Positions 27,701-46,599 of a stretch of DNA of 64,000 nucleotides are shown in pieces. The stretch's first letter is position 1; each line of letters starts with the position of its first letter. The stretch is from assembly GCA_964588985.1 (NCBI GenBank), contig CAZPQW010000001.1, forward strand, positions 1-64,000, given 5' to 3'. The position numbers and the translations under genes are program-made. Under the pieces are notes generated by a model that worked only from the letters and a program-made list of their open reading frames with translations, did not search any database and was not told the origin of the DNA. The DNA comes from an uncultured Solirubrobacteraceae bacterium. GTDB lineage: Bacteria > Actinomycetota > Thermoleophilia > Solirubrobacterales > Solirubrobacteraceae.

Positions 27701-30700
27701 GAAGACGAAGTTTGGATACGACAGCGAAGGCCACCTGACCGCCATTACACCACCCGGACAGGAGCCGTGGCTAATTCACTACGGAACCACCGCCGCCGAC
27801 TCAACCGCCGGACGCGTCCTATCAGTCGCTAGGCCTGAGGCGAGTATCGCGTTTGGCAGCGGGAAAGGCTCCGTCAACGAAGCAGCTCCGACCCTCTCGA
27901 CGACGACACCTGTCGTCGGCACGACCATGAGTGTCGCAACGAACGGGACGTGGAGCAACAGCCCGCTGAACTACACCTACCAATGGGACGACTGCAATGC
28001 CGAAGGCAAAGCGTGCGCTGCTATCCCCGGAGCAGTCAACCAGAGCTACACACCTCACGCGAGCGACGCAGGCTACAAGCTCGTAGCTGTCGTCACGGCC
28101 GAAAACGCGGTAGGAGCCGTAACGGCGCCGACGGGGGCGACAAGTGCACTTGCGATGACAGCCCCCACCTACTCACTGCAGTTCGGCAAAGAAGGCGAAG
28201 GGGAAAACCATTTCAAAGGTGTCGGCGGAACGGCGATCGACGCGTCCGGAAACGTATGGAGTACCGATCCAGGCAACTTTCGCGTCGAGGAGTTCAAATC
28301 GGGAGGGGCATACGTCGGCAGCTACGGGGTCAAAGGCGAAGGCGAAGGAACAGTCCAGTTCCGCGAACCAACGGCCATCGCGATCAACCAAACGACCGAA
28401 GACGTGTACGTCGTCGACCGCGTCAACGACCGGATCGAGGAGCTCGGCCCGAAAGGCGAATACCTCCGCGTCTTTGGAAAAAAAGGAAACGGGCCAGGCC
28501 AACTCGAATCACCCGCCGGAATCACGATCGACTCGGGTGGCGACGAGTGGATCACTGACGCCGGCAACAGCCGTATCGAGGAGTTCACTCCCGAAGGAGC
28601 ATTCATCACCGCAGTGGGCGTCAAAGGCTCGGGCGAAGTCCAGTTCACCGAACCTAAGGGCATCGTCTTCAATGGCGGGCGACTGTATGTCGTCGACAGC
28701 GGCAACAATCGGATCGAGGTCCTGTCCACTTCCGGCGGGTTCCTGTCTCAGTTCGGACACGCGGGAAGCGGTAACGGCGAATTCAAAGAAGCAAACGGGA
28801 TCGCGGTCGATCCCATCAGCGGAGCCATCGTTGTCGTGGACAGCGGCAACAGCCGCGTCGAGCTCTTCAACAAGGAAGGCACATACTTGACCAAGGCCGG
28901 CACGAAAGGCACCGGCAACGGCAGTTTCAACTCACCCACCGGCGCCTCCGTAAACTCCGCCGGAACAATCTATGTGGCAGACAGCGGCAACAGCCGAGTC
29001 GAGGCTCTCGCTGCGACCTACTCAATCGCCAACCCGCCTCCGACGCCGCCGGCGAAAGAACCGAACGCGATCAGCACAATTGAGTACGGGGTGCCGGTTT
29101 CAGGAGGTGACGCCCCGTACCCTCTCGGCGCGTCCGAAACTGCAAAATGGGGTCAGACAGATAACCCCACGGAAGGCGCCGCGGTCTTTCCGCCCGACGA
29201 GCCAATGGGCTGGCCAGCGAAAGACTATCGCCGCGCGACGATCAGCTACCTCGACGGTAACGGACGCGTCGTAAACACGGCGCTCCCGAGTGGGGGAATC
29301 GCGACCACCGAATACAACGAACTGAACGACGTGGTCCGCACGCTGTCGGCAGACAATCGTGCGACCGCTATCGCTGCAGGTACGAAATCTGCCGAAGTTG
29401 CCGCGAGTCTCGAATCAAAAAGCACCTACAACACGACTGGCACCCCGGGTACCCAGCTGGAAACCACAATTGGGCCTGAACATAAAGTGAAGCTCTCAAG
29501 CGGCTCCGAAGTACTCGCCCGCGCAGAGACGAAATACGCCTACAACGAAGGTGCGCCAAAAGAAGGCGGCCCCTACAACGAGCCGACCAAAACCGAAAGC
29601 TTTGCTTCTTACAGTGGCAAAACCGCCGACACGCGTGAATCCACCACCACGTACGGTAAAGAAGCCGCGTCGTGGCGCCTCGGAAAGCCTCAGACCATCA
29701 CGAGTGAGCCGAAAACTCAGCATGTCGCGCACGAAGCCTTCTACAACTCGTCCGGGGGGGTGACCGAAAGTAGGACACCAGCCGCCGCCAACGGCAAGTT
29801 CAAGTTTGAAGGTAGCTTTGGTGCCACCGGCACCGGGCACGGTGACTTCACAAAAGGCAAGGCGATCAGCTTCGATGCCGCGCACGGCACGATCTTGCTG
29901 GCCGACAGCGGCAACAACCGCATAGACGAATTCAACGCCGTTACGGGCGCCTACGTCAGTGAATGGGGCACCAGTGCCGAAGGCAAACTGAGTAAACCTT
30001 TTGCAGTGGCGCCATTGAACACCTACAACCGGTTCGTCGCAGATGAAGCACTGCCGACCTACCGCATTGCGGACTTTTTGAGCGCATCACCGTTCGAATA
30101 CAGTGGTCAGTGGCAAGTGGGTGCGGCGTCGAAACCGCTTGCGATGGCTGTAGGCGTGAACTCCAGCAAATACCAGACCTACGTGGCCTTGACCAACGAC
30201 GAAATCAAGCACTACGAAACGTCAGGTGGCGAATTCTTCGAAGAACCCACTGAAGCCGCATCGTTTGGCAAAAAAGGCACTGGAAACGGAGAATTCAACA
30301 AGCCGGCAGCACTTGCCTTCAACACGAAAACTGGTTTCGTCTACGTTGCCGATACGACAAACAGCCGCGTCGAGTACTTCAGTCGGACCGGGAAATACGA
30401 AGGGCAGTTCGGGTCAGCCGGCTCCACCGAAGGAAAGTTCAACAAGCCTGAAGGCATAGCCGTGGCCCCGAGCGGCAACGTGTTCGTGGCAGACACCGAA
30501 AACAATCGGATTGAGGAGTTCACGAGCACAGGGACGTTCATCCAGAGCTTTGGAGGCGCTGGTCCGGAAAAACTCGTCCTTCCGATCGGTGTGACAGTAG
30601 GGGAAGTGGAAACACCTCGCGGCAAAGAAGAACGGATCTATGCGCTCAACGAGTTCGGCGCGACGATCTCGATGTGGGGTCTGGCGTCGCCGGACGATGC

Positions 30701-33002
30701 ACAAACGATCTACTACCAGAGCGGCACGTTTACGAAGCATCCGACATGTGGTGGACATCCGGAGTGGGCAGGACTGGTTTGCCAAGCCCAGCCGGCGATG
30801 CAACCGCTACCCCACGTGTCCGGCATGCCCGAACTCCCGGTCAAGACATATTCGTACAACCTGTACGGTGGCGTGGAATCGATTGTGGAAACGTTCGGGG
30901 CCACCACCCGCACGACGAAACATACGTTTGACGCGGCAGGCCGCGTCGTCACGAGCGAAATCGTCAGTAGTACCGGTACTGCGCTTCCAACTGTCACCAA
31001 TACGTACAACACCACGACGGGTTCTGTAGAAGTGCAGACAGCGACAAAAACCGGCAGCCCCACGGAGACCGTCACAACGGTCGAAGACGCCCTGGGCCGG
31101 CTTGTCAGCTACACCGATGCCGACAAAAACGTGACGACGTATAAATACGACATCGGCGGACGCGTCACGGAAGTCAACGACGGTAAAGCGGACGGAAAAG
31201 GCATTGAGACGTTCGTGTATAGCGAAACCAGTGGGCTTCCCACGGAACTAACCACCACAGCATGCAGCGGGTGCAACTTCACTGCTACCTACGATGCGGA
31301 AGGCCATCAGATTACCGAAGGGCTTCCGAATGGCATGACCGCAACCTACATCTACAACGCGGCCGGGACCGCCACCAGCGTTGTCTACAAAAAGACCACG
31401 CACTGCACGGAAGAACACGAAAAATGCGTTTGGTTCAAAGACGTGCTTGTGCCATCGATTCACGGCCAGTGGCTTACGCAAGAAAGTACTTTCTCGAAGC
31501 AGCAGTATGCGTACGACGAACTGGGCCGACTCACGCAGGTGCAGTCAACGCCGACCGGCAAAGGTTGCACGACACGGGCATATGGCTACGACGAAGAAGG
31601 CAACCGTCTTAGCCTGACAAGTTACCCGCCCAACGCTAAAGCCGAATGCAGCACAGAAGGTGGCGTTGCCGAAACGCACACCTACGACTCTGCTAACCGC
31701 CTCACCGATACTGGAGTGACCTACGACGGAATGGGCGACACGACCGCCCTGCCTGCCGCCGACGCAGAAAAAGTCGAAATGACAAATACGTACTACGCGG
31801 ACGGTCAGCTAGCCACCGCGACGCAGAGCACCGAGGCTCTCGGCTACAGTCTCGATCCAGATCTACGCGTCCGCGAGGTCGTCGCCTCGGGACCGCACTC
31901 GTCTGAAGTCACGTCGCACTACGGCGGCAACGGCACGACAGTGGCGTGGACGAGCAATGCCGCCGGTGAACAATCACAGAACATTATCGGCCTTAACGGG
32001 CGCCTCGTGGCGATCCAAAACAATGGAGCGGCGCCAGAACTCCAGATAGTCAATCTTCACGGCGACATTGTGGCTACGGCGTATCTCTCTGAAACAGCGG
32101 AAGCGCTGGCGACAAGCGCAGACACGACGGAGTACGGAGTACCGACTACAGCTGGTCCCGCGAAATACTCGTGGCTCGGCGCCATATCGCTCCCCACGGC
32201 GGAACTGCCATCGTCGCCGATCCAGATGGGCGTGCGGACGTACATTCCGCAACTTGGGCGCTTCTTGCAGCCCGACGCCGTGGCGGGCGGATCAGCGAAC
32301 GCCTACAGCTACACGTTCGACGACCCTGTCAATAGCTCTGACCCGAGCGGCCAATACGCGATTACAGAACATCAGGAAGCCTGGGTGAGCGAACAAATTG
32401 GAGGCGAAGCTCAGAGTAAAGCGGCGGAAATCGTGCGCGAGGAAGAAGAAGCAGCAGCACGCGCCGAAGCGGAACGCCTAGCTCAGGAAGCGGCGATGCA
32501 AGCCTCGGCGGCTGGCCCGCAGTGGGAAAGCGAATGGGAAGAATGGGAAGAATGGTGGGAAGAAGAAGGATGGGAATTCGAATACGTCTCTAACCAGCAC
32601 GGAGCGCAGTCGGGCGCCGAACCGTTTAGCACCCAGTCCGCTGCCCTTCTCGGTGAATCGAGCACCGAAGGCGGCGAAGGCCAGCTTGCGTTTGGCGCTA
32701 TACCGCTATGCACCGGGACGGCTGTTGGCCCTTGCGCCGAGCTCGAGCACTTCCTGTCCGGCTACCACGGGCGAGGATTGCGCAGCGCATGCGCGGTTGC
32801 GCTGAGCTGGGCGGCCATTCAGGGCGGCTGTGGAGATGACCTTATCCAGCGTGTGCGCGAGGACACTCAGGAGACCCAAACGGAGTATGTCAGTCGGCCG
32901 AGACCGTACGAGGAGGACAAATGGTGCGCTTGCGGCGGTCGGTCCGGAGGAGGACGGTTTGGATGGGAGGAGGAGCCGGCCGAGTTCGAGGGCGACGTGT
33001 AG
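24738..33002 (+). CDS. Secreted RHS/YD-repeat protein with NHL propellers (polymorphic-toxin / teneurin-like architecture)
   Basis: Signal peptide, Ig-like segments, YD repeats, NHL repeats (F..P.GIAV..G..YVADxGNxR), core MGVRTYIPQLGRFLQPD..DPVNSSDPSG (DPSG at 32340-32351) then 216-aa C-terminal domain. Confidence 0.92.
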   Translation: MNLLLLLLRRRTVWLPCAILCCLIAGPVGLATAGVPLLGGSVQAPSLPSLEHGAPTLALTKPSETAVALTAEIRSRTLYEHLDPTRARSVARQAFPALVTDPVEVIPPSTEPQVVGYPSDHAARLLLPGQKHAVIDSQEPVAVTLPNGARRALDLGLAAAPGGDFRARTPAVAVRIPQHLRDGVNLADQGIRLTPINARGVPLVGATGSLDGASVLFADTGVDSDTLVKLVPAGVETDTILRSARSAHTLYFRITAAGRVRLQHADDAAERILVNGRSAAIVPAPVAHDATGSAVPVSMTTSGRTLRLAVTPSPTTTYPIVVDPTVEDTKVLLNGNWIFETNNATAFNVKSLPFEELEMSDPGLGSAASGQFADLNYLTQKWSHIYKFHLWYDNTETAGNGALQDQMALRNSKELEWVQGLSINTGEKPAEICEIPPAYACSSPAIDGENKNNRALYEQQVVKTPAGGSTGTARLELADVYISQELYPTSSLDKTDPTLSGKPNAGYPGTWINTGAGSGTHGVFGLNAYDPGIGIYHQAFRLIEKPGWEEFKWSTSEAINGCKGVQCNECYEFECPSTKVKSAPLSIEGASLPEGEWPLETRVEDYAGLGNDSTEIVKIDNASPTGLAIVGLPPGGQINEGARQVTVRATDGTGTTPSSGVASLVLYANGLEVGKVLPCAPGPCAAAGELTLQHLPVGKSTLTLVATDRAGNVASTEQTVYVRHATPTAVGPVTVNPINGAATITSSDVNVPLANGGALTLTRTYNSRQLTAGSEGSVGPQWTLGLSGSEQLNVTASGATLVGAAGGATRFTKTGSSWEAPKGDQNLSLSEVKEGATVREYLLKNATGTSTIHFKQPTGSESTAPWMPTISEGRTATSTYTYTYTTETVEGKPVIKPLEELAPVPSGVSCVTLEKGCRALKFVYGTSTKATGENESEWNEYTGRLSEVTYVAYNPTTKGMATVGIAKYLYDAHGRLRAEWNPEISPALKTKFGYDSEGHLTAITPPGQEPWLIHYGTTAADSTAGRVLSVARPEASIAFGSGKGSVNEAAPTLSTTTPVVGTTMSVATNGTWSNSPLNYTYQWDDCNAEGKACAAIPGAVNQSYTPHASDAGYKLVAVVTAENAVGAVTAPTGATSALAMTAPTYSLQFGKEGEGENHFKGVGGTAIDASGNVWSTDPGNFRVEEFKSGGAYVGSYGVKGEGEGTVQFREPTAIAINQTTEDVYVVDRVNDRIEELGPKGEYLRVFGKKGNGPGQLESPAGITIDSGGDEWITDAGNSRIEEFTPEGAFITAVGVKGSGEVQFTEPKGIVFNGGRLYVVDSGNNRIEVLSTSGGFLSQFGHAGSGNGEFKEANGIAVDPISGAIVVVDSGNSRVELFNKEGTYLTKAGTKGTGNGSFNSPTGASVNSAGTIYVADSGNSRVEALAATYSIANPPPTPPAKEPNAISTIEYGVPVSGGDAPYPLGASETAKWGQTDNPTEGAAVFPPDEPMGWPAKDYRRATISYLDGNGRVVNTALPSGGIATTEYNELNDVVRTLSADNRATAIAAGTKSAEVAASLESKSTYNTTGTPGTQLETTIGPEHKVKLSSGSEVLARAETKYAYNEGAPKEGGPYNEPTKTESFASYSGKTADTRESTTTYGKEAASWRLGKPQTITSEPKTQHVAHEAFYNSSGGVTESRTPAAANGKFKFEGSFGATGTGHGDFTKGKAISFDAAHGTILLADSGNNRIDEFNAVTGAYVSEWGTSAEGKLSKPFAVAPLNTYNRFVADEALPTYRIADFLSASPFEYSGQWQVGAASKPLAMAVGVNSSKYQTYVALTNDEIKHYETSGGEFFEEPTEAASFGKKGTGNGEFNKPAALAFNTKTGFVYVADTTNSRVEYFSRTGKYEGQFGSAGSTEGKFNKPEGIAVAPSGNVFVADTENNRIEEFTSTGTFIQSFGGAGPEKLVLPIGVTVGEVETPRGKEERIYALNEFGATISMWGLASPDDAQTIYYQSGTFTKHPTCGGHPEWAGLVCQAQPAMQPLPHVSGMPELPVKTYSYNLYGGVESIVETFGATTRTTKHTFDAAGRVVTSEIVSSTGTALPTVTNTYNTTTGSVEVQTATKTGSPTETVTTVEDALGRLVSYTDADKNVTTYKYDIGGRVTEVNDGKADGKGIETFVYSETSGLPTELTTTACSGCNFTATYDAEGHQITEGLPNGMTATYIYNAAGTATSVVYKKTTHCTEEHEKCVWFKDVLVPSIHGQWLTQESTFSKQQYAYDELGRLTQVQSTPTGKGCTTRAYGYDEEGNRLSLTSYPPNAKAECSTEGGVAETHTYDSANRLTDTGVTYDGMGDTTALPAADAEKVEMTNTYYADGQLATATQSTEALGYSLDPDLRVREVVASGPHSSEVTSHYGGNGTTVAWTSNAAGEQSQNIIGLNGRLVAIQNNGAAPELQIVNLHGDIVATAYLSETAEALATSADTTEYGVPTTAGPAKYSWLGAISLPTAELPSSPIQMGVRTYIPQLGRFLQPDAVAGGSANAYSYTFDDPVNSSDPSGQYAITEHQEAWVSEQIGGEAQSKAAEIVREEEEAAARAEAERLAQEAAMQASAAGPQWESEWEEWEEWWEEEGWEFEYVSNQHGAQSGAEPFSTQSAALLGESSTEGGEGQLAFGAIPLCTGTAVGPCAELEHFLSGYHGRGLRSACAVALSWAAIQGGCGDDLIQRVREDTQETQTEYVSRPRPYEEDKWCACGGRSGGGRFGWEEEPAEFEGDV

Positions 33003-36862: not shown

Positions 36863-37609
36863 ATGACCCCCGCGCGAGCGACCTACCTCCACCGGTTCGT
36901 GATCCTGCGGACCTTCATGCAGTGGGTCAGCCGCCAGCACGGCACACCCGACCCGTTCCTCACGCTCAAGCCACCACGCCAGCAGACAGCACGCAACTGG
37001 CTCACCCGAGACGAGTTCCTCCAGATACTCAAGGCGGCTGAGCACCCGCCGCGAAAGCTGGCGGGCCTCGTCGAGCGCGACCGGCTCGTGCTGCTCGCGA
37101 TCGTCATGGCTGGCCTGGGTCGCTACGAGTTGATGGCCGCACGCTGGGCAAACATCGATCTCGACACGCGCCCCGCGACCCTCGAAATCCACGCCGGCCT
37201 CGGCCGAACGCCCCGAACCCAGCCACTACCCGTCCAGCTATGCGCAGAGCTCCAACGCTGGCGCGAGCTACGCCAGCCCAGCAGCGTTGGGCACGTGTTC
37301 TGCGGGCTGAAGGGCGGCCGGCTGCAGACCTACACGCTCGAGCAGATCATCACACGCGCCACCAGCCGCGCCGGCCTCGAGAAAAACGTGTCCGCGGGGA
37401 TGCTGCGCCAGACAGGCGCGACCTGGCTACGACAAGGCGGAGCCGCCACATGGCTCACCGCCGAGTACCTCGGGCACACAGACTCACCCACCACCCGCTA
37501 CGGCCACAAGCCCGAGGACCTGCGCGCCGCACTACAAAAGATCGCCGACTACATCACCAACAACCAACCAATCACCGTCCACCGCAAACGCCTCACAACG
37601 TACGACTGA
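36863..37609 (+). CDS. XerC/D-like tyrosine recombinase, N-terminally short and catalytically degenerate
   Basis: RDRLVL..AGLGRYEL (GLR->GLG), AGLG for GKG, SAGMLRQT for HxLRH, but LGH and RY retained. Confidence 0.75.
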   Translation: MTPARATYLHRFVILRTFMQWVSRQHGTPDPFLTLKPPRQQTARNWLTRDEFLQILKAAEHPPRKLAGLVERDRLVLLAIVMAGLGRYELMAARWANIDLDTRPATLEIHAGLGRTPRTQPLPVQLCAELQRWRELRQPSSVGHVFCGLKGGRLQTYTLEQIITRATSRAGLEKNVSAGMLRQTGATWLRQGGAATWLTAEYLGHTDSPTTRYGHKPEDLRAALQKIADYITNNQPITVHRKRLTTYD

Positions 37610-37698: not shown

Positions 37699-38451
37699 CT
37701 ACGCCTGCGGTCTCGGTGAGGAGAGGTAGATTGCTCGTCCTGCTGCGCCCATGCCACACGGCTTCGGCGCGAACTCGGCTCTCAGACCATCTGGTACGCC
37801 ACGGATCTCGCCTCGGTTGTCAACGTCGAAGTTTTGTTGAAGACATCGAGTGAGCTGGGACAGGTAGGTGTCATATGCAAGCTGAGCAACTCTGTCGAGA
37901 TCATCGGGAACGAAACCAAGGCTCGCGCGGGGTGGAGGCACGGCGCCCGGTGGTCCGATCGTAACGCTTTCACTTGAATCCTCATCCATATCGACCGCAA
38001 TGAGCAGTGCGTGGGTATGAAGCTGGGGTGGTGGCTGATCAGCCTGCGGCAGGCGCGCAAATGAGTGAATAAATTGGGCCGCAATTGGAACGGCACCGAT
38101 CGCCACGCCGAGGTGAGCAAGTGCCATATCGACCGCCATCTGGTGCGCTTCGTCGATCGAGCTTTCGGACTCGGGATGGAGCACCCGTATGCTAGAGACG
38201 CTTACTGGTGCTGTGAATTGCAGCTCGACTACGGGGCCTAGCATCTCATTGGCTGCAACCAGATCGCCGATCCCGATCGGGCCATTGATCTTGAGTCCCA
38301 GCTCTGATGCGGCGGCCTGAGTCCCGAACCATCTCGATGGCGGCTCGATCGCGTGTTCATCTATCTCCACGAGTTCAAAGAGATACGAAGAGTCGACCGC
38401 GCTCGCTGCGCGCTGGCTGGATTTGCGGAAAGGGTTGAGCCTCAAGGCCAC
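37699..38451 (-). CDS. Stand-alone TrwC/MobF-like relaxase domain (possibly degenerate)
   Basis: EPPSRWFG..ELGL, ELQFTAPVSVS, AHQMAVDMALAHL, FIHSFAR..PQLHTH, EIRGVP..EF; GTG start 38451 inside ORF 37699..39117. Confidence 0.7.
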   Translation of the reverse strand: MALRLNPFRKSSQRAASAVDSSYLFELVEIDEHAIEPPSRWFGTQAAASELGLKINGPIGIGDLVAANEMLGPVVELQFTAPVSVSSIRVLHPESESSIDEAHQMAVDMALAHLGVAIGAVPIAAQFIHSFARLPQADQPPPQLHTHALLIAVDMDEDSSESVTIGPPGAVPPPRASLGFVPDDLDRVAQLAYDTYLSQLTRCLQQNFDVDNRGEIRGVPDGLRAEFAPKPCGMGAAGRAIYLSSPRPQA

Positions 38452-38494
38452 AACATCATAATGAGAGCTCGGTTGAGCGAGGGTGGTGCCGACG

Positions 38495-39934
38495 TCAGGC
38501 AACGACGCGCAGGTGTGAGCGCTTTGCCTTGTTGCCTTGCCGTTCCGCTCGTGCCGAGCGCCACTCGATATCGACCGGTCGCGGTCCGAAGCGCCGGAGA
38601 TCGTCGATTGCGAATGCGTAGTGCGCGTCGAGCATCTGCAGGCTCGTCCCGCACTCCTTCGCCACCGTCTGTGCGTCCTCTGCTCGAAGCCTGACGGAGA
38701 TGCCGCCGCGTCGCAGCGCGTAGGGGGTCGCGCCGAGGGTGTCGCGGAACTCAGGCTGCTCGGCGACCTTCGTGACGGCTGGGTTGAAGTAGTTCGGCCC
38801 CCACTTCTTCGCCTGGTTGCCGCTGAAGTGGCATGCGCCCGTGCGGGCGTCCTGGACGCCGTAATCAGCGCCGCCGAGATCGCCGGGGAAGATGAAGTCC
38901 ACATCGCGGGCTGGATGTCCCCAGCTGCGAAGCGCGTTGCGCCACTCCTCGAGATCTTCCACCGCGATGCTTGGGACGGCGGTTCGACGTTCGGTGCTGT
39001 GTTCGGTCTTGCCCCATTCGTCGAGCGCGCCCCAGGAGACGACCTCGACCACCTCCGCGTAGGACGCGTGGAGGGACATCCAGCGCATGCCCCAAACCTC
39101 CTGGTTGCGCGCGCCAAGCCCGTACTGCAGGCTCACGACCGCCGCGTCGCGCTGGGCAAAGATGGGGTCTCTGTCCTTGGATCGCAGGAGCATCTGTGCA
39201 CGGATCGCCTCGACCGCCCGCGGGGAGAGCGCCCAGCTCGGTATCTGCGATCCACGTCGGCGGCCCGCTGCTGCCGCGCCGGTGCCGCCTCGCCGGGAGG
39301 AGCGGCGTCTGCTGATAGTTCGCTCGTTGGCAAGGATGCACCCGTTGGTCTGGATCTCGGGCACGACGTGCGAGCCGGCGGCCCAGCTCAGAGCCGAGGA
39401 CAGCACGCTCCACGCCTGCTGACGCCTCGGCTGGGGCAGGTTCGCCTGAATCATCTGTTCGCGCCACGTCCGCGGCGCCTGCGGCTCGTTGAACATGGCG
39501 GCCGGCTGCGAGGCCAGCGCCACGGCGTATCGAGCCGGCGGGAGAGGCTCGCCCTTCGCGTTGTGCAGAGGCTTGCCGAGGATGTGGCAGTTAGCGGCCG
39601 ACGAGTACGCGGCGAACGTCGACGGCGCAAGACCCGCCTGGAGGCTCGGGTCGGCGTCCAACGCGAAGTAGAGCTCGACCACCTCTCCGATCGTGCGGGC
39701 GCTCGTCTCGTTGGCCTCCTTCGCGTCGAGATCCAGCAGGAACCTCCGCAGGCTGTCTACGCCCCGCCGCTCCGCCGTTATGTAGTCGTCCATCCAGACG
39801 CGGGCCTGTCGTGCCGAGGGGAAGTGCCGAGTCCGCTCCACCCGGTCGTGGTCGTAGAAGCCGACCGCGTAGGACTTGGCGCCGCGCTTGCCGACTCGCG
39901 GCCACGCCGAGGACTTCTTCCAAGGTCTACTCAT
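38495..39934 (-). CDS. int: Tyrosine integrase of the island
   Basis: N-terminal arm-binding-like region; GARNQEV, GKT, PYALRRG, CGTS..HY; adjacent to xis and attR. Confidence 0.85.
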   Translation of the reverse strand: MSRPWKKSSAWPRVGKRGAKSYAVGFYDHDRVERTRHFPSARQARVWMDDYITAERRGVDSLRRFLLDLDAKEANETSARTIGEVVELYFALDADPSLQAGLAPSTFAAYSSAANCHILGKPLHNAKGEPLPPARYAVALASQPAAMFNEPQAPRTWREQMIQANLPQPRRQQAWSVLSSALSWAAGSHVVPEIQTNGCILANERTISRRRSSRRGGTGAAAAGRRRGSQIPSWALSPRAVEAIRAQMLLRSKDRDPIFAQRDAAVVSLQYGLGARNQEVWGMRWMSLHASYAEVVEVVSWGALDEWGKTEHSTERRTAVPSIAVEDLEEWRNALRSWGHPARDVDFIFPGDLGGADYGVQDARTGACHFSGNQAKKWGPNYFNPAVTKVAEQPEFRDTLGATPYALRRGGISVRLRAEDAQTVAKECGTSLQMLDAHYAFAIDDLRRFGPRPVDIEWRSARAERQGNKAKRSHLRVVA

Positions 39935-40340
39935 CCGCTGCTCCCTCGATTGGTGTGGCGATCGCGGGAGGCGAGCCCGACGTGCGGTATTGAGCGCGCA
40001 GCTCCTCCAGACGCTCCGGCGAGAGGTCGTAGGCGACCGCCTCGCGCTTCAACGGAGGGCGACGGGCCTGTCCAGCGCGCCGCGTGCGTGGCGCTGGGTG
40101 TGCCCCGAGAGCCGTTCGGCGACGGTCGAGACCGGCGGTGTCGTTCTCGACCCAGAACTCGTCGATCGCCTCCAGCGGTATGCGGTAGTGCCCTCCTGGC
40201 AGGCGCCGATACCGGAGCCTGCCGATGGCGATGTAGCGACGCAGCGTGCGCTCGTGGACGCCGAGGGCGGCCGCCGCCTCGCCGGTGCTCAACACGCGAC
40301 GCGTGCCAGCACGTGCGCCGGAGTTGGAGGGTTTGCCCAT
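39927..40340 (-). CDS. xis: Excisionase-like HTH protein
   Basis: LSTGEAAAALGVHERTLRRYI..GRL..RLPGGHYRIP; overlaps integrase start by 8 nt. Confidence 0.82.
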   Translation of the reverse strand: MGKPSNSGARAGTRRVLSTGEAAAALGVHERTLRRYIAIGRLRYRRLPGGHYRIPLEAIDEFWVENDTAGLDRRRTALGAHPAPRTRRAGQARRPPLKREAVAYDLSPERLEELRAQYRTSGSPPAIATPIEGAADE

Positions 40341-40457
40341 GCCCCATCCGTCTCGATGGCGGGCCCTTCTCCCCCAGACGAATGTTCTGGATGCGTGCTC
40401 GGCCGTGGGCCTCAGAGCCCGCGTTCTCGGGGCCTGACGCTTCTCAAAACAGCGCGA

Positions 40458-40481
40458 ATCTGCGGTGCCGTTGCGGTGCCG
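40458..40481 (+). repeat. Putative integrase arm-type site, right
   Basis: ATCTGCGGTGCCGTTGCGGTGCCG, matches 12275-12298. Confidence 0.7.
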
Positions 40482-40543
40482 TTCGCGATCCCCATGAGCA
40501 GAAATGCTTATTTGCAGGCAGAAAGCCCCCAAATGCCCCGTGT

Positions 40544-40586
40544 CTCGTAATGAAGGGGTCCGGGGTTCGAGTCCCCGCGTCGGCTT
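40544..40586 (+). repeat. attR core (duplicated 3' half of tRNA-Thr)
   Basis: Exact 43-bp copy of 12150-12192; the 5' half of the tRNA is absent. Confidence 0.95.
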
Positions 40587-40648
40587 GCCTCGGTCTTCGG
40601 ACGGCGCCGCTTCACGGGGCTCGTGTGTGACCTCTACGATATTGGGAC

Positions 40649-42031
40649 TTACGCCGCCGCCGTGTAGGGCGGCGGAGGATCTGTTCCAGGCTTGGTGTTC
40701 GCCACTGCGGTGAGCTGATTGGGTGCGCGGAGATCGAGAGCGACTACCGAGTACTCGTTGCCGCCGTGGAGTAGGCGCAGGATGTCGGCCACGGCCACGG
40801 TGCTGGCGATCACGCCGACGAACGCCGCACCGACCGTGACGTCCGCGAACTCGAGCAGCCCGCAGCGCGCCGCGGACTCCTCCATACCACCCTCGATCTG
40901 GCGGGTTATCTCACTCTCATAGGCAGGCGCGAGGGCGGGGCGAGCCTGCGGGGTCTCCTTGAAGGCGGTCGCGGGGGATTCGACCGACGGGAAGGTATGC
41001 ACGAGCATGTCCAGGTACTCGTGCGGCCCGGCACCGAGGCCGGCGTCTACGACGCGATCGAAGCCCGCGCCCTCGAGCTGGCGACGTGGGGTGACGTCGT
41101 CGAACCCGGCCAGTGCGTTGCGCGGTTCGTTGCGCGTGGGTACTGCATGGGCCTGCGGGTGGAAGCTCTCATCAAAGGCTCGCTCAACGATCCTGGTCCC
41201 CAACCCGACCTGTTCGAGCGCGGCCGCGACGACGCGTGTCTTGCGCGAGCCTATGTCGCCGAGTCCTACGAGCAGCTGGGTGGCGATGTTGCCTTTGATG
41301 ACGGTGTCGAAGTCCAGCAGGCCGAGTTCGACCTCGCTGGGGTTGGCGTACGGCAGCATCCCGAGTGTCCACGCGTTGGCCTGCCCGAGGTGGCCGAGAC
41401 CCAGCAGCCATAGAGCCGCCGGAAGGTATTCGAGCGTAGGGCCGGGCGGTGCGGATCGCCAATCGTGATCGGTGCGCCAGAGCGAGATGCCAACCTCTCG
41501 CCGGCCGGGCACCGGGTTACCCAGCGACTGCTGGAAGATCTCCGAGACCCCGAGAGCGCCGGCCAAGATGCCGGCCGGGACGATCGCGGGGCCGCTCAGC
41601 CGGCGGTCCGGTGACTCTACGACCCCGCCGGTCCAGCCACCCCACGTGCAGTACAGGAGGGGCTGACCGACGGGGTCGCGCGGGTTGCCGATCACCATCG
41701 TCGGGAGGTCTGACTGGAGCTGGTCGACGACGGTGCCGCCGTAGCGGTTCACGACAGCCGTCGCCGCGAGCCCATCGGTCCAGCCGGTCTGAAGGGAGGG
41801 GTCGGTGTCGAGGAGGACGCGCACGCCGCCGTGGAACGCGCGTCGCCCGACGTTCACGACGGTGGCAAGAGCGGCCTGAGCGGCGCGATCGTGCTCGAGG
41901 TCCGGACCGACGGCGATCTGCAGGACGAGTTGGCTGAGAAACCGTCCAGCCTCGGCCGGGTCTTTGGCTTTGCCCGCGTCGATCAGGAGCTTGCCGGTGC
42001 GATGGAGGTCGTCGGCAGAGCCCCAGCTCAT
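40649..42031 (-). CDS. bilD: E1-like (ThiF-fold) ubiquitin-activating enzyme, BilD-like
   Basis: N-terminal inactive-adenylation-like half; GLGHLG, DFD, RKTR, VVDAGLG, AARCGLL..VGAAFVG Cys; ATGA overlap with JAB gene. Confidence 0.85.
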   Translation of the reverse strand: MSWGSADDLHRTGKLLIDAGKAKDPAEAGRFLSQLVLQIAVGPDLEHDRAAQAALATVVNVGRRAFHGGVRVLLDTDPSLQTGWTDGLAATAVVNRYGGTVVDQLQSDLPTMVIGNPRDPVGQPLLYCTWGGWTGGVVESPDRRLSGPAIVPAGILAGALGVSEIFQQSLGNPVPGRREVGISLWRTDHDWRSAPPGPTLEYLPAALWLLGLGHLGQANAWTLGMLPYANPSEVELGLLDFDTVIKGNIATQLLVGLGDIGSRKTRVVAAALEQVGLGTRIVERAFDESFHPQAHAVPTRNEPRNALAGFDDVTPRRQLEGAGFDRVVDAGLGAGPHEYLDMLVHTFPSVESPATAFKETPQARPALAPAYESEITRQIEGGMEESAARCGLLEFADVTVGAAFVGVIASTVAVADILRLLHGGNEYSVVALDLRAPNQLTAVANTKPGTDPPPPYTAAA

Positions 42032-42528
42032 GCCCTTCTCCCTATCAAGAGGTGTCGCTCGGCCTGCCTGCCAGTCCACGTTTCCCAGCCCTCGCCGTCG
42101 TAGCGGTGGACCCCTACGGTCCGCGGCTTGGTGGCTCGCATGGCGAGGTGGGGCACGATGAGGGCGACGTGCCCGGCTTGGGCGAGCATCGGGTTGGCGG
42201 CGTCGATCGGGCTCTGGCGGACGCCGCCGCCCGGATGGGTATGGACGTCCCCGATCACGCGGCGGTGCTCGGCGTCGCAGATGTCCCACAGTTTGCTGTA
42301 GGCAAGGCCGTCGAAGCTGATGCCGCCGGTCAGGCAGTTGGGGTCGAGGTCGTCGAGGTAGACGACCCGCGTCACGGTGGTCGGATCGCCGTGGCGGTCG
42401 GCGAGCAGGAAGGCGCCAGACTCACGTCGTCCCTGTCCGCGGCGCCCAAGCTCGGCGATCATCGCGTCCCACGCACTGCGGCGCATGCGCAGGAGCGCGT
42501 CGCGACGCCTATATGCCCAGATAGTCAT
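42028..42528 (-). CDS. bilC: JAB/JAMM metallopeptidase (deubiquitinase-like), BilC-like
   Basis: RESGAFLL..DVHTHPG..QSPID (E..HxH..S..D). Confidence 0.88.
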   Translation of the reverse strand: MTIWAYRRRDALLRMRRSAWDAMIAELGRRGQGRRESGAFLLADRHGDPTTVTRVVYLDDLDPNCLTGGISFDGLAYSKLWDICDAEHRRVIGDVHTHPGGGVRQSPIDAANPMLAQAGHVALIVPHLAMRATKPRTVGVHRYDGEGWETWTGRQAERHLLIGRRA

Positions 42529-42970
42529 CGGCGTTCAGGATGTTGTGGACGTTGCTGAGCACGAAGCTGATGTCGCGCGTGGGGTTCCACGCATCGTGGG
42601 GGTGCTTCTGAGCCCAGTCGGCGTGCGAGCCCAGGGCGATGCGGTCCCACGGGGCGTACATTGCAACGCCGTCGCCCCAGTCGGTACGGAACACGTGAGC
42701 GGCGCGATCGCCCTTGGGCCGATACGCCGGCGCGAGCGAGCAGCCCGCATCGTTATCCCAGAGGCTGCCGGTCGGCGCCGAGTGGGGGTAGCCGGCAACG
42801 TCGAGTCGCAACACGAACCCCTCGGGGCTCTTCGAGCGCGGCGCGGCCGAGATCACGAACGTGGCGTGAGGCCAAGTGAGCTCAATCAGTCGCCAGCGCC
42901 CGGCCTGTACTCCGGCCTGGAAGCGCGCCCCCTCGAGGTGGGTTCGCAGTGTGCGCTCGTCCGGCGTCAT
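42509..42970 (-). CDS. bilB: Prokaryotic E2/UBC-like protein, BilB-like
   Basis: GRW..WP, LRLDVAGYPHSAPTGSLWD, VFRTDW, YAPWDR..H.DW, VHNILN; sits between Ubl and JAB. Confidence 0.78.
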   Translation of the reverse strand: MTPDERTLRTHLEGARFQAGVQAGRWRLIELTWPHATFVISAAPRSKSPEGFVLRLDVAGYPHSAPTGSLWDNDAGCSLAPAYRPKGDRAAHVFRTDWGDGVAMYAPWDRIALGSHADWAQKHPHDAWNPTRDISFVLSNVHNILNADDYLGI

Positions 42971-43435
42971 TCAACCCTCGAAACGCGAGCGCGGCAGCAG
43001 GTCCAGCGTGACCGAGCACTCCCCTGGCTTAGTCAGCGCCCCGACGTGGACGCCGGGATCCAGGAAATGGTCGGCACCAGGAACGGCGAGGACATGCTTG
43101 GCGGCCTGCTCTTTGGAGAAATTCGCGACCTCGGGGCCAAAGGCCCATTTCTCGACCGTCTTGATCGTGCGCGACGGCCCGAAGCTGCGCTCGTGGGTGC
43201 CGTTCCAGCGGACGATGACCTCGACGTGGCGACAACGGCCGCGATGGACGTGGTGGCGGTGGTGGATCCCGGCGACGTCAAGCGTGAGATCGAGATCGAT
43301 CTCCTCGTCGACCTCCTCGATCCAGATCCCGCCGTCAGGGTCGTTCTCGACGAGGAGCGTGCGGACCGAGGCGGTCTCCTCGACCTCGATTATCTCTGGG
43401 TCCTCGGCCTCAGTTGTGTGCAGAAAAAGCTCCAT
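42971..43435 (-). CDS. bilA: Two-domain (ISG15-like) ubiquitin-like protein, BilA-like
   Basis: 154 aa; VHRGRCRHVEVIVRWNG..FGPS.TI..V.KWA..HVL..HVGAL..DLLP; ends in a free Gly (RFEG-stop). Confidence 0.82.
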   Translation of the reverse strand: MELFLHTTEAEDPEIIEVEETASVRTLLVENDPDGGIWIEEVDEEIDLDLTLDVAGIHHRHHVHRGRCRHVEVIVRWNGTHERSFGPSRTIKTVEKWAFGPEVANFSKEQAAKHVLAVPGADHFLDPGVHVGALTKPGECSVTLDLLPRSRFEG

Positions 43436-43494
43436 GGGACTCCTTGGCTAGAGCCGACGCCGAGGCGACGGCTACGATGAAGGGGAAACAAAAC

Positions 43495-43539
43495 CTTTAC
43501 CCGGCGAGTGTATCAAAAGATCTTTACCCACGAGGTAAA
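43495..43539. promoter_or_regulatory. Putative operator in the AT-rich divergent promoter region
   Basis: CTTTACCC at 43495 and 43522; palindrome TTTACC-N5-GGTAAA at 43523-43539. Confidence 0.55.
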
Positions 43540-43559
43540 TGAAAAAGCATGGCACGAGT

Positions 43560-43874
43560 ATGGACTTGGGCTTCGACAGCGATGGCTTGGCGGCGTTGTG
43601 CAACGCTGAACGACTGATGGTCGAACGCTGGGGTCCAGAGATGGGGAGGACCATCGAGAAGCGGCTCCTCGACCTGGCGGCTGCCACAGCGGCGACGATC
43701 GAGCGCATCCCCACGGCCAGCACGACCCGCGGCCGGGACGGCCAGATGACGATCACGTTCAACGGAGCGATCGTGATCAGCGGTCAGCTCATGGCGTGCG
43801 CTGACGGGGCTCGCAAGGACACCGATCAGTTCGTGATCGCGACCGTGATCGTCGACGAGAATAGGCGCCCATGA
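43560..43874 (+). CDS. HigB/RelE-like protein, apparently degenerate
   Basis: MDLGF..L..LCN..WG....I.KRL.DL.AA resembles the HigB N-terminus; C-terminal DYH absent (VDENRRP); ATGA overlap with HigA-like gene. Confidence 0.6.
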   Translation: MDLGFDSDGLAALCNAERLMVERWGPEMGRTIEKRLLDLAAATAATIERIPTASTTRGRDGQMTITFNGAIVISGQLMACADGARKDTDQFVIATVIVDENRRP

Positions 43875-44947
43875 AGGATTCGAGTACACCAATCGCGTTC
43901 CGCCCGGACTACGCCATAGCGCCCGGGGAGACCCTGCGCGACGCGTTGGCAGAGCAGAGCCTCTCCCAAGCCGATCTCGCGGCACGTGCCAGCCTCTCCG
44001 CCAAGCACATCAACCAGATCCTGCAGGGCATCGCGCCGATCACTCTGGAGACCTCAATCGTGCTCGAGCGGGTCACCGGGATACCGGCGAGCTTCTGGAA
44101 CAGGCGTGAGGCCGACTACCGCGAGACGCTGCTACGCCAGAAACAGCGAACGCTCTCGGACGACGACAAGGAGTGGCTCAGTTCCCTTCCGATCAAGGAG
44201 CTGCAGAGCCGGGAGAAGATTCCCCGGGAGAAGGATCGAGGTCGGCTGTTTGAGGCTGTGCTGTCGTTCTTCGGCGTCGCTGATCGTCAGGCGTGGGAAC
44301 GCATCTGGCATGGACCGGTCGCGTCGTTCCGGCGTTCGCACGCATTTACCAGCCATCCGGGCGCGATCGCCTCGTGGCTGCGCATCGCACAGCTCGATGC
44401 CCAAAACGCAAAGGCCGAACCGTTCAACGCAAGCGCATTTCGAAGAGTCCTTCGAGAAATCCGCGCGCTTACCGCCGACGGTGATCCGAACCTGATCGTG
44501 GAGATGTGCGCGACCGTCGGCGTGGTGGTGGTCTTCGTACCCGAGGTCAAAGGTTGCCGTATCAGCGGAGCGGCCTGGTGGGCAACTCCAGCCCGCGCTG
44601 TGATCGCATTGAGCGACCGATACAAGAAGGACGACTTCTTCTGGTTCACCTTCTTTCATGAGGCCGCACACCTGCAGCTGCATTCCAAGAAGGAGACTTT
44701 CGTTGATGACGGCAAGGACAGCGACGTCACCGAGGATGAGGCAAACGGCTGGGCCCAGGACTTCCTGATCCCGCCAGAGCGAGCTCTAAAGCTGCGTACG
44801 CTGCGTACTGACGCGCACGTCGCGGCGTTCGCGCGCGAGATCGGTATCGCCCCCGGGATCGTCGTCGGGCGAATGCAGCACGACAAAATCTGGGACTACC
44901 GCCAAGGCCACCACCTCAAGCGCTCAATGTGCATCGTCGAGACCTAG
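43871..44947 (+). CDS. HigA-type HTH fused to an ImmA/IrrE-family Zn metallopeptidase
   Basis: PDYAIAPGETL..SQADLA..KHINQI..G..PIT..FW; SDRYK.DD.FWFTFFHEAAH, EDEAN.WA..FLIP. Confidence 0.9.
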   Translation: MKDSSTPIAFRPDYAIAPGETLRDALAEQSLSQADLAARASLSAKHINQILQGIAPITLETSIVLERVTGIPASFWNRREADYRETLLRQKQRTLSDDDKEWLSSLPIKELQSREKIPREKDRGRLFEAVLSFFGVADRQAWERIWHGPVASFRRSHAFTSHPGAIASWLRIAQLDAQNAKAEPFNASAFRRVLREIRALTADGDPNLIVEMCATVGVVVVFVPEVKGCRISGAAWWATPARAVIALSDRYKKDDFFWFTFFHEAAHLQLHSKKETFVDDGKDSDVTEDEANGWAQDFLIPPERALKLRTLRTDAHVAAFAREIGIAPGIVVGRMQHDKIWDYRQGHHLKRSMCIVET

Positions 44948-45104
44948 CACGCCTGCTCGTCGCACCGGATCAGCAACGCGGACCTAAGTCCCGTTGATTC
45001 TTGGCTATGGCGTCGCGGCTACGTCACCGCCAACACGCTACCTCCTGTCCCCATTTGGCCGCGCCGAGCGTGCTGAACTATGCGGTCGTTTGAGTAGCAC
45101 TCGT

Positions 45105-46376
45105 ATGGTGTCGGCAATGGCAGGCGCAAACGCCGCGTTCAGGACCGTCTTCGGCGAGGGTTTGACGCCGGACGCGATCGGCGCAGCGCTCGCGGACCCA
45201 GTTAGTGCTACTGAGCGCCTGATCGCCGCATGGCACCGCGAACGAGTGATGCCAAGCGCTCTTCCACCGCTCGCCGTCGGCGAGCTCCGGCCACTGCTCG
45301 GCCATGGCTTCAGCCCAAACTGGCGCTACGGGCTCAGCTGGGCGGAGTCCGAGCTCGACCGCTTGACGATCACGCTGACGTACGCACACCGCGCCGTGCT
45401 CATTGACCCGTTCAGCTACCTCGAGGACATCCTTCGGAGCGATGCGATGACCGCCAGTGTGCTGGCCGGCATCCTGCACATCGTGGCATTCGTCGAGCCG
45501 TTGACCGAAGCCTCGACCGTATTGATGGTCACTGAGCCTGAGCAGGTGACCCGGCTTGGCCGGACTGGGCCTTGGCCAGCTATGAGGCCCTCTGGCCTCG
45601 TGACCGACGTCCGGGCCAAGATCGTGCGTCGGATCGAGGATGCCTTGGGGGTGTTTGACAACCAGCCCAACGAAGCGAGGTGGTCGCGCGGCATTGAGGA
45701 CAACGCGGTCGGTCGCGACGCCACGATCCACCTCATAAGACAGACCAACGCGATGGCCGGCCGGGCGCACCTTCTGTTCGAGGAGACCCACGACTGGGAT
45801 TTTGGCTACGGCCAGAGCAGGACCTTCGAGCGCATGATGATGTACGCGCAGCTACGTGCGTTGGCGCGTGCTGCCGTTCGCCATCGCGGGGAGGTCGGCA
45901 AGGTCCTACTCCTGCTACGACGCCCCATCCCCGACATGGCTACGGTGACGCCCACCGATCTTCTCGCGCTCCGGAGCAGCGACGGGTTCGGGCAGGTCCG
46001 TCACCAGGTTGGAGATGCACTGGAGCGGTATGAGATCGGAGTACGGGCCGGTCGCGCGGATGTTGGCGACGGCCTCGCGGACGAGCTGCGCGCCAGCGCC
46101 GAGGCGCTCGACGCCGAAATCGCCGCCTCAAGCGCGTTGACCGCGATGCGGCGCGGTGTTGCTGCGCTGAGCATGACGGCCGCGGCGCAAGTCGCACTGG
46201 CTCTGACGGGCATTGGCGCCGCCACCCCCGTAGAGCTCGCCACCCCCGCCGCCGTCGGTGCTCTTGAGTATGTCCGCGCGCTTGTAGCGGCCAGTTATGA
46301 ACGCGACCGGAACCGGTCGCTCGAGGCGCACGCGACGACTGTGCGCGCGGTCGCCGAACGTATGGCGCTCCTCTGA
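45105..46376 (+). CDS. Hypothetical protein with C-terminal hydrophobic helices
   Basis: Long ORF (423 aa from ATG 45105) with no recognised catalytic motif. Confidence 0.7.
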   Translation: MVSAMAGANAAFRTVFGEGLTPDAIGAALADPVSATERLIAAWHRERVMPSALPPLAVGELRPLLGHGFSPNWRYGLSWAESELDRLTITLTYAHRAVLIDPFSYLEDILRSDAMTASVLAGILHIVAFVEPLTEASTVLMVTEPEQVTRLGRTGPWPAMRPSGLVTDVRAKIVRRIEDALGVFDNQPNEARWSRGIEDNAVGRDATIHLIRQTNAMAGRAHLLFEETHDWDFGYGQSRTFERMMMYAQLRALARAAVRHRGEVGKVLLLLRRPIPDMATVTPTDLLALRSSDGFGQVRHQVGDALERYEIGVRAGRADVGDGLADELRASAEALDAEIAASSALTAMRRGVAALSMTAAAQVALALTGIGAATPVELATPAAVGALEYVRALVAASYERDRNRSLEAHATTVRAVAERMALL

Positions 46377-46599
46377 TCCGCGAGCCCCGACGCGGGTGTG
46401 GCCGAGCCCGCCCATTCGGCGGTCCGGCTGACGCTCAAGCAACGGCGAGGTGAAACGTGCCGTGAGCGCAGGGGAACTTCGTGACGAGCCGTCGCCGAGA
46501 GAGGTACGCTCGCCGTCTAAGTGTGCGCTTGGATCCTGCTCTCTCAGGGGCCTCTGGCGGGCGCGCGACGGCACCGCGCTGTCACCGCAAACGCGGGCC

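Follow-up and report, generated by a model that had tools for sequence, protein, structure and literature searches.

An operon related to Type I Bil with a cysteine-less E2-fold protein in a Solirubrobacterales genome

A four-gene operon of the Bil lineage

We analysed 64,000 nucleotides (nt; hereafter the window) of contig CAZPQW010000001.1 from an uncultured Solirubrobacteraceae bacterium (assembly GCA_964588985.1) and identified an operon of four minus-strand genes, bilA, bilB, bilC and bilD (Table 1). The bacterial ISG15-like (Bil) systems to which these genes are related are the clearest bacterial counterpart of eukaryotic ubiquitin/ISG15 conjugation, in which textbook logic passes the tag from an E1 cysteine to an E2 cysteine and on to a lysine. 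The E2-fold protein of this operon, BilB, has a tryptophan at the position of the catalytic cysteine, and the cysteine is absent from a whole branch of its relatives.

An earlier note, made from the sequence alone, had described four abutting or overlapping genes, and we find them exactly within 40649-43435 on the minus strand. Read from the sequence, the bilA TGA directly abuts the bilB ATG, bilB runs 20 nt into bilC, and an ATGA is shared by bilC and bilD. The bilA ATG is preceded at 4 nt by AAGGAG. A 546-amino-acid (aa) reading of bilD from a GTG at 42289, overlapping bilC, was ruled out; homologues are about 460 aa long and the PADLOC alignment begins at residue 1 of the shorter protein.

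The note had also called the gene order BilABCD-like, and the PADLOC check it proposed agrees. All four Bil models match near end to end (BilA 1.6e-38, BilB 5.3e-56, BilC 1.3e-58, BilD 2.4e-142), which is far beyond chance. Pfam identifies DUF7665 in BilB (7.4e-44), together with sub-threshold matches to Prok-JAB in BilC (2.9e-4) and ThiF in BilD, and none of the four proteins comes near the curated cut-off of any NCBIfam model. We compared the operon with 80 related loci, the best of 463 BilD relatives from a motif scan of one genome per GTDB species. The bilA-B-C-D order is kept in most of these loci, and tblastn detects BilA in 70, BilB in 74, BilC in 79 and BilD in all 80. Judged by its sequences, the operon is genuinely related to the Type I Bil lineage.

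BilA, BilC and BilD keep their folds and motifs

BilA aligns over residues 1-154 to positions 4-162 of the 162-position PADLOC model. Its AlphaFold model has a predicted local distance difference test score (pLDDT) of 95.3 and contains two tandem beta-grasp repeats, which Foldseek matches to linear di-ubiquitin, ISG15 and FAT10 across about 160 columns. BilA ends in a free glycine, Gly154 (codon 42974-42976), and a terminal Gly is present in 62 of 64 relatives; the two others end in ...ESSR and ...EGAY. Each ubiquitin-like domain also carries one cysteine that is nearly invariant in both branches of the family: C68 (43232-43234) is Cys in 61 of 62 sequences and C140 (43016-43018) in 54 of 62.

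BilC has a complete JAMM motif, E36...H96-x-H98-x7-S106-x2-D109. Among 61 BilC sequences, H96, H98 and D109 never vary, and conservation of E36 and S106 is 90% or higher. BilD contains a 'GLGHLG' loop (G211-x-G213-x-x-G216) and an 'RCG' cysteine, Cys390 (codon 40862-40864). Residues G211, G213, G216, D240, K264, D311 and C390 are invariant in an alignment of 36 BilD sequences, and in a 76-sequence set all of them are found in 76 of 76 except D240 (75 of 76). A profile built from 36 BilD relatives finds the Ensifer aridi E1(BilD), 8tyz_A, as its best PDB match (8e-08), followed by ThiF, MoeB and Uba1. Single-sequence PDB searches with BilD and with BilB gave no meaningful match.

The motifs that the earlier note had read, namely a free terminal Gly on the ubiquitin-like protein (Ubl), an intact JAMM site, and GxGxxG plus the RCG Cys on the E1, are thus all present and conserved in relatives. 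Its assignment of Ubl, E2 and E1 folds also stands: BilA is di-ubiquitin-like, BilB has an E2 fold, and the BilD profile is best on a BilD structure.

BilB has an E2 fold without the catalytic cysteine

The BilB model (pLDDT 96.8) adopts an E2 (UBC) fold. Its nearest structures are E. aridi E2(BilB) chains, which occupy Foldseek ranks 1-3 (8tz0_C: Z 12.3, root-mean-square deviation 3.3 Å, 132 aligned; VIA), and many eukaryotic E2s rank after them at Z of about 10.

In BilB, Trp108 (codon 42647-42649) occupies the column of the 'PCDR' cysteine, and Ala103 that of a second cysteine, in 'GxCLY'. The protein keeps Asp109, Arg110 and His116, and has Arg84 where Cys-type members have Trp84. Distant BilB proteins from Sphingomonas, Novosphingobium, Planctomycetota and some Chloroflexota read 'LY[LI]PCDR...GH', whereas the window protein and its nearer relatives read 'YAPWDR...SH'; in ten canonical BilB both cysteines and the D, R and H are invariant. 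No cysteine column is conserved in an alignment of 55 BilB sequences, and the sole cysteine of the window protein, C77, lies in a column that is Cys in 3 of the 55. The earlier note had called the locus a complete ubiquitination operon, a description that fails here, with Trp108 in place of the catalytic cysteine and the only other candidate not conserved.

This feature is shared by many relatives. Among 70 BilB proteins (the window and 69 loci), the Trp108 column holds W in 29, C in 27, F in 9, Y in 3, M in 1 and S in 1. Cysteine is therefore absent at this column in 43 of 70, and 22 of those 43 proteins contain no cysteine at all. By comparison, His116 is retained in 69 of 70, and D109 and R110 are conserved in the BilB alignments.

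The importance of the missing residue is known from a tested Type I system. In Collimonas, the E2 substitution C113A, at the predicted active site, abrogates defence, as do E1 C385A, deubiquitinase D115A and Ubl G163L; no Ubl~E2 thioester was detectable in that system (Hor 2023 preprint). The PCDR cysteine is residue 113 in a 161-aa Caulobacter sp. homologue (P0353). A homologue search with a Betaproteobacterial BilB as query and a scan of genomes based on a canonical alignment returned Caulobacter, Bradyrhizobium, Agrobacterium and others, and no Collimonas BilB. The window BilB has neither candidate cysteine and so lacks an equivalent of C113 whichever column C113 occupies. Without the catalytic cysteine, the canonical E1-to-E2 thioester relay cannot run. 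No account of a Bil E2 without the cysteine turned up in our literature search; such members may be listed in the supplementary tables of the Bil papers.

One explanation is that the system is canonical Bil and BilB still carries the tag covalently at another site, either as a Ser/Thr oxyester or through some other nucleophile. Bacteria do have E2 chemistry without Cys, since the intermediates of Bub pathways are oxyesters and not thioesters (Ye et al. 2024 preprint). BilB moreover conserves Thr67 and His116, and one member (L063) has Ser at the Cys column. However, the substitutes W (29), F (9), Y (3) and M (1) cannot form such an intermediate at this position, and Ser occurs in 1 of 43 proteins. 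Thr67 and His116 are as conserved in Cys-type BilB, and hence are not replacements. We also detected no gain of Ser, Thr or Lys: besides the Cys column, the only BilB column that separates the Cys-less from the Cys-type group at ≥80% is residue 84 (W to R). Covalent carriage by BilB is therefore improbable in our judgement.

Other proteins provide no evident substitute. BilA, BilC and BilD of the Cys-less group have gained no cysteine. The genome from which the window derives (3.41 Mb, 48 contigs, 96% complete) contains one DUF7665 gene, and searches of it for UQ_con, Prok-E2_A and Prok-E2_B found no match; control genomes were likewise unmatched, so this last result is weak evidence.

The cysteine-less branch is broad and under purifying selection

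A tree of 76 BilD sequences separates Cys-type from non-Cys systems with a Shimodaira-Hasegawa-like approximate likelihood ratio test (SH-aLRT) support of 97. One side is a 28-row clade with 25 Cys and 2 non-Cys BilB; the other is a 48-row clade with 38 non-Cys and 2 Cys BilB, the latter from loci L062 and L048. The window falls within a clade of 31 rows (support 99); 26 of these have a scored BilB, non-Cys in every case, and 5 are unscored. The tree implies at least four changes of state between Cys and non-Cys, and 0 of 500 label shuffles were as good, though kinship alone clusters labels.

The non-Cys clade is mostly from Actinomycetota, including Solirubrobacterales, Acidimicrobiia, Actinomycetes, a Mycobacterium sp. 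metagenome-assembled genome (MAG) and Lentzea albidocapillata. A sub-clade with F at the Cys column contains Chloroflexota, one Gemmatimonadota MAG and two Alphaproteobacteria MAGs. BilD identity within the Cys-less clade falls to about 40%.

BilB residues 84 and 108 occur as the pairs R/W (28), W/C (25), R/F (8), R/Y (3) and R/C (2). This distribution suggests a stepwise remodelling of the site, in which the two R/C proteins look like intermediates. A single substitution turns a Cys codon (TGY) into one for W (TGG), F (TTY) or Y (TAY), and a change from W to F takes two. The different substitutes would thus fit several independent losses of the cysteine.

Comparison with six relatives gave ratios of nonsynonymous to synonymous substitution rates (dN/dS) of 0.13-0.32 for bilB and 0.11-0.34 for the other three genes. 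bilB is under purifying selection and is not decaying, since its dN/dS resembles that of its neighbours and D109, R110 and H116 are conserved.

These data bear on a second explanation, that conjugation has been lost. BilB would then be a pseudo-enzyme, and the operon would be a remnant in decay or would serve another purpose, for example as decoy or sensor or through a BilA that acts non-covalently or only when bound to E1. The residue essential in Collimonas is indeed absent here (Hor 2023 preprint). BilA and BilB are undetected beside BilC and BilD at one locus (L054), a hint of erosion in some members, and beyond the window's own genome BilB was matched once in 400 sampled genomes of the phylum, by a gene with an in-frame TAG. 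Against this, the four genes are intact, tightly coupled and under purifying selection. The Cys-less clade, which is large and, from its BilD identities, old, has everywhere retained the adenylation loop and Cys390 of E1, the JAMM site and the BilA Gly, features relevant only to activation, conjugation and deconjugation. Loss of conjugation thus appears unlikely, and the operon is probably still a conjugation and phage-defence system, as far as its sequences can tell.

The Cys-less branch is a minority of a rare family. We identified 594 clusters of BilD relatives at E ≤1e-5 among scored candidates. In a 50%-identity library, 1065 representatives are BilD relatives at E ≤0.001, 370 of these at 1e-30. 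The double-Cys motif GxCLY[LA]PCDR is found in 179 relatives, and an indel-free DNA pattern for the W type in 13 stretches, a lower bound. In a phylum sample of 401 genomes, BilB occurs in 2, namely the window's own genome and the one with the in-frame TAG. The earlier note had set the actinobacterial host against characterised examples from proteobacteria. Novelty on this ground is weak: dozens of Actinomycetota records hold close relatives, rare though they are in that sample.

A few loci stand apart. Two near-identical BilD proteins (L060 and L061; end branches 0.0045 and 0.014) come from records with the labels Isosphaera (Planctomycetota) and Alcaligenaceae (Pseudomonadota), and a record labelled Candidatus Micrarchaeaceae archaeon (L041) contains a W-type Bil operon. 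These placements reflect either very recent transfer or binning errors. In the Solirubrobacteraceae MAG locus L054 (about 3120-6365), tblastn finds BilC, BilD and the regulator pair described below, with the pair directly upstream of bilC and no BilA or BilB. This locus may be an eroded or rearranged Bil variant.

A divergent gene pair shares the bil control region

The operon is divided by a short spacer from two genes on the opposite strand. The spacer contains the palindrome TTTACC-N5-GGTAAA (43523-43539), an extra half-site GGTAAAG (43495-43501) and, on the bil strand, a -10-like hexamer, TACACT (43507-43512). A TTTACC...GGTAAA-type motif recurs upstream of bilA in 14 related loci, and the palindrome may be an operator.

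The region from the palindrome to the bilA ribosome-binding site can also form a GC-rich hairpin (43436-43490, minus strand). Hairpins are present here in most loci, with differing sequences. The hairpin was rejected as a conserved element: it beats shuffled sequences in the window only (z -3.0; others -1.1 to +0.7), and RNAalifold on a poor MAFFT alignment of the region found no structure.

The first divergent gene encodes a small protein that is unmatched in Pfam, NCBIfam, PADLOC and PHROGs. Its ESM Atlas leads are HigB-like/RelE-ParE clusters (feature score 0.90; structure TM-score 0.66-0.71). Homologues of 99-117 aa are encoded beside bilA in 19 of 80 loci. An ATGA overlap joins this gene to the second, which encodes an Xre helix-turn-helix (HTH) domain fused to an M78 metallopeptidase domain (Pfam HTH_3 2.3e-7, Peptidase_M78 7.6e-9). 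The protein has HEAAH at residues 263-267 (44657-44671), and HExxH is present in 15 of 15 homologues. In PADLOC it matches PD-Lambda-2_B nearly full length (3.3e-36) and, far more weakly, capP (2.8e-5) and capH (0.033).

Several observations connect the Xre-M78 gene to Bil. First, 20 of 80 loci have it divergent from bilA, in a fixed position and orientation, over BilD identities of 41-91%. Second, where such loci have a scored BilB, it is Cys-less in 17 of 17. Finally, Xre-M78 is often more conserved than BilD, for example 75% versus 60% in L010. By analogy with CapH/CapP, we read the pair as a putative fused switch for bil.

The pair also resembles the toxin-antitoxin-like A/B pair of PD-lambda-2 and could act on its own, a point that weighs against the switch. 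In that system the HigB-like A neutralises B, the Xre-peptidase B is toxic alone, and C is needed for defence (Vassallo 2022, PMC9519451). The strong PD-Lambda-2_B match and the HigB-like leads of the small protein would be accounted for by an abortive-infection module, of toxin-antitoxin or PD-lambda-2-like type, that is independent of bil and happens to share its island. However, the third PD-lambda-2 gene was not found: the next gene downstream encodes a 460-aa protein without a family match, which accompanies the Bil cassette only in the closest relative (98% in L006; 1 of 80 loci), and the A-like gene has no PADLOC match. Moreover, none of the 20 loci with the pair departs from its divergent placement next to bilA, the spacer carries a conserved palindrome, and the arrangement is that of CapH/CapP with Type II Bil (Chambers 2023 preprint). 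Independence of the pair is the less likely alternative, one we nonetheless take seriously, and the roles of regulator and module are not exclusive.

The cassette lies at a tRNA-Thr insertion hotspot

The earlier note had placed the operon in an actinobacterium. In support of this, six of six organism-named sequences among 120 listed relatives of the window's holB (4734-5900) come from Solirubrobacterales/Solirubrobacteraceae MAGs, with 74-89% identity. Solirubrobacterales belong to Thermoleophilia, Actinomycetota, and the host is a high-GC actinobacterium of soil type.

The bil genes are part of a 5.8-kb cassette (40645-46440) that comprises bilDCBA, the two divergent genes and the 460-aa gene. 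The cassette has 95.2% DNA identity with a Solirubrobacterales MAG (L004), and 40650-44947 has 86.3% identity with a second (L005). Outside the cassette, only a tRNA-Thr of these two loci matches the window; in L004 it lies 1.4 kb past bilD. A 410-aa open reading frame (ORF) between bilD and this tRNA was considered as an integrase and rejected, with no match in Pfam or PHROGs and no likeness to the window integrase.

In the window, a tRNA-Thr gene and an exact 43-nt copy of its 3' end (repeat family D4; 100% identity, two matches versus 0 expected) bracket an integrated element of 28.4 kb and lower GC content (12150-40586), of which the copy at 40544-40586 is the right end. An integrase, an excisionase-like gene, a second Phage_integrase gene and a TrwC-relaxase-like fragment lie at this end (Table 1). 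The Bil cassette is located just outside the element, at a tRNA-Thr insertion hotspot.

The element also holds a squalene/phytoene synthase, an FtsX/ABC transporter set, and PadR and LuxR-type regulators. Its largest ORF (24738-33002, plus strand; 2754 aa) contains NHL repeats (1.6e-43) and RHS repeats (5e-19), and the DNA repeats D1/D2 are NHL units. The product could be a polymorphic-toxin-like or surface protein. In a Solirubrobacteraceae MAG, a protein with TIR (CAP12/Pycsar-type) and ThsA_Macro domains (L005:1141-2469, minus strand) adjoins the Bil cassette, a neighbourhood of the defence-island type.

It is conceivable that the operon is not a defence system in this host and modifies proteins for the mobile element or for host physiology. 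ISG15, ubiquitin and Bil are absent from the main text of a survey of defence arsenals in actinobacteria (Georjon preprint). Three lines of evidence argue otherwise: the operon is homologous to systems that protect Escherichia coli from phages; its spread is patchy and cassette-like, with 95% DNA identity between differing flanks and occurrence in 2 of 401 genomes of the phylum; and both its regulators and the TIR/ThsA_Macro neighbour are of defence type. We regard a role outside defence as very unlikely.

Table 1. Features of the window at and near the bil operon
Feature	Position	Strand	Description	Basis
bilA	42971-43435	minus	154 aa, C-terminus ...RFEG	ORF list, PADLOC
bilB	42509-42970	minus	153 aa, DUF7665, E2 fold	PADLOC, Pfam, model
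bilC	42028-42528	minus	166 aa, JAMM/JAB metallopeptidase, deubiquitinase-like	PADLOC, motif
bilD	40649-42031	minus	460 aa from ATG of 'MSWGS', E1-like adenylating enzyme	PADLOC, profile
Shared divergent spacer	43436-43559	.	Palindrome, half-site, -10-like hexamer	Read from sequence
Small HigB/RelE-like gene	43539-43874	plus	111 aa from ATG 43539, more likely 104 aa from ATG 43560	ESM Atlas leads
Xre-HTH + M78 (ImmA/IrrE-type) metallopeptidase fusion	43871-44947	plus	358 aa	Pfam, PADLOC
Unassigned gene	44994-46376	plus	460 aa; no Pfam, NCBIfam, PADLOC or PHROGs match	
tRNA-Thr(CGT)	12119-12191			
43-nt exact copy of tRNA-Thr 3' end	40544-40586	plus	Other copy 12150-12192; 62 nt from bilD stop	
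Integrase	38495-39934		In 28.4-kb element, near right repeat	PHROG integrase 2.2e-8
Excisionase-like HTH	39927-40532		In 28.4-kb element, near right repeat	
Second Phage_integrase gene	36863-37609		In 28.4-kb element	
TrwC-relaxase-like fragment	within 37699-39117		In 28.4-kb element	

Proposed working of the system

We give about an even chance to the following reading: in its Solirubrobacterales host the operon acts as a mobile cassette against phages, is of the Type I Bil lineage, belongs to a distinct branch whose E2-like protein has lost its nucleophile, uses BilB as an adaptor and is switched by the divergent pair. This reading joins observed homology, folds, motifs, cysteine absence, clade-wide pattern, selection and gene linkage to a predicted biochemistry, target, defence role and regulation.

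BilD would adenylate Gly154 of BilA and then hold BilA as a thioester on Cys390. BilB, which retains the Asp109-Arg110...His116 site and has Trp108 for Cys, would be unable to accept the tag. It may instead act as a non-catalytic adaptor, similar to a ubiquitin-conjugating enzyme E2 variant (UEV) or an E3, that docks on E1~BilA and presents a target lysine, so that BilA passes directly from E1 to target. By analogy with Collimonas Bil, the target may be a phage structural protein. BilC, through its JAMM site, would remove off-target conjugates. The HigB-like and Xre-M78 proteins may repress the shared promoter via TTTACC-N5-GGTAAA, with repression relieved by self- or partner-directed proteolysis upon infection or DNA damage.

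More tentatively, and with somewhat less than even confidence, we extend this to the whole branch, mostly from Actinomycetota and Chloroflexota. Its members would discharge E1~Ubl directly onto lysines with an obligate pseudo-E2 adaptor, having lost the nucleophile several times after remodelling at Arg84.

Several points weigh against the cassette and adaptor reading. The E2 cysteine is essential in one tested Type I system (C113A), and a Cys-less BilB could therefore mean a non-conjugating system. Transfer from E1 straight to lysine, assisted by an E2-fold adaptor, has no demonstrated precedent in the papers cited here. That Trp108 corresponds to C113 is judged from the motif, the Caulobacter residue numbering and the emptiness of both Cys columns, and not from the Collimonas sequence; the fold tools give ranges and not residue pairs, so Trp108 is not structurally superposed on a catalytic cysteine, and a BilB profile had no match among PDB sequences. 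The branch itself is defined on the selected best 80 of 463 loci and on a quick IQ-TREE analysis with SH-aLRT support only, some long branches and 9 rows without a scored BilB. As for the switch, many Cys-less loci have no regulator pair, and a scan for consensus promoters and terminators, of sigma-70 type and not designed for actinobacterial promoters, returned 0 sites.

If direct discharge is true, the branch would be a natural 'E1 plus pseudo-E2' cascade; if the branch is inactive, it is merely a catalogued variant. In either case the Cys-less proteins offer a natural experiment on what an E2 fold may do beyond carrying the tag, such as positioning, target choice or activation of the E1 thioester, and they bear on the origin of UEV-like pseudo-E2s. 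The operon is also a Bil candidate for monoderm, high-GC hosts, with a linked candidate sensor/regulator; no tested Bil system from such hosts is described in the papers cited here.

Comparison with known systems

Type II BilABCD systems (CEHH/6C operons; Ensifer aridi TW10; Chambers 2023 preprint) have the same gene order as the window and provide the closest solved structures (8tyz, 8tz0), with a sequence similarity to the window proteins that is below the reach of phmmer. Many Type II BilA proteins, including that of E. aridi, have one beta-grasp domain (up to three are found) and often require C-terminal trimming, whereas BilA here has two domains and a free Gly. The Type II E2 retains Cys138 and His151; BilB of the window has only the His equivalent, H116.

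Bub pathways resemble the proposed system in that a bacterial E1/E2/Ubl cascade can abandon thioester chemistry. They differ in how this is done. Bub proteins have oxyester-forming residues in place of Cys and an E1 without catalytic Cys, whereas here the E1 Cys is invariant and the E2 position is W, F or Y. We set Bub apart as another family on the fit of the Bil models; no Bub model was searched.

Eukaryotic UEVs, such as Mms2 and Uev1, are E2-fold adaptors without a catalytic cysteine that work with an active E2 partner. BilB likewise has an E2 fold without nucleophile, and Mms2 and UEV-1 chains are among its structural matches (Z 9.5-9.6). UEVs are, however, no nearer to BilB than active E2s are (Z of about 10 for many), and we found no other E2 in the operon or genome.

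The divergent pair has counterparts in two types of defence locus. Like CapH/CapP, it combines an Xre HTH with an M78 domain bearing an intact HExxH and lies upstream of a defence operon on the opposite strand. Regulators of the CapH/CapP type repress their operon and are cleaved upon DNA damage or in response to single-stranded DNA. Divergent CapH/CapP (HTH + M78) shares the promoter region of 25 of 162 Type II Bil operons (Chambers 2023 preprint), and CapH-CapP fusions occur in 15 cyclic-oligonucleotide-based anti-phage signalling systems (CBASS) and at a Nocardia defence island system associated with restriction-modification (DISARM) locus with a small toxin-like (vapC-like) gene (Lau 2022 preprint). 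The layout of the pair, a HigB-like gene followed by an Xre-peptidase fusion, also matches PD-lambda-2 A/B.

Type I BilABCD is the nearest relative by gene content. In the Type I system BilA is conjugated to a phage tail protein, and E. coli is thereby protected from phages (Millman 2022 and Hor 2023 preprints). The Collimonas sp. OK412 system shares with the window the four genes, their order, and a two-domain BilA with terminal Gly, and functional residues lie at near-matching positions (G217/G219/G222, C385 and D115 in Collimonas; G211/G213/G216, C390 and D109 here). The earlier note had given the characterised examples as proteobacterial, and those named as tested are Alpha- and Betaproteobacterial (Millman 2022 preprint). 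Unlike them, the window operon comes from a monoderm actinobacterial host and has a fused Xre-M78 gene with a HigB-like partner upstream. Unlike Collimonas, it has Trp108 for the essential C113, Ala103 for the 'CLY' Cys and Arg84 in place of Trp84. By sequence, then, the operon departs from Type I Bil in one defining feature, the E2 cysteine, whose absence it shares with a whole branch of relatives; it is thus a variant of Type I Bil and not a plain member.

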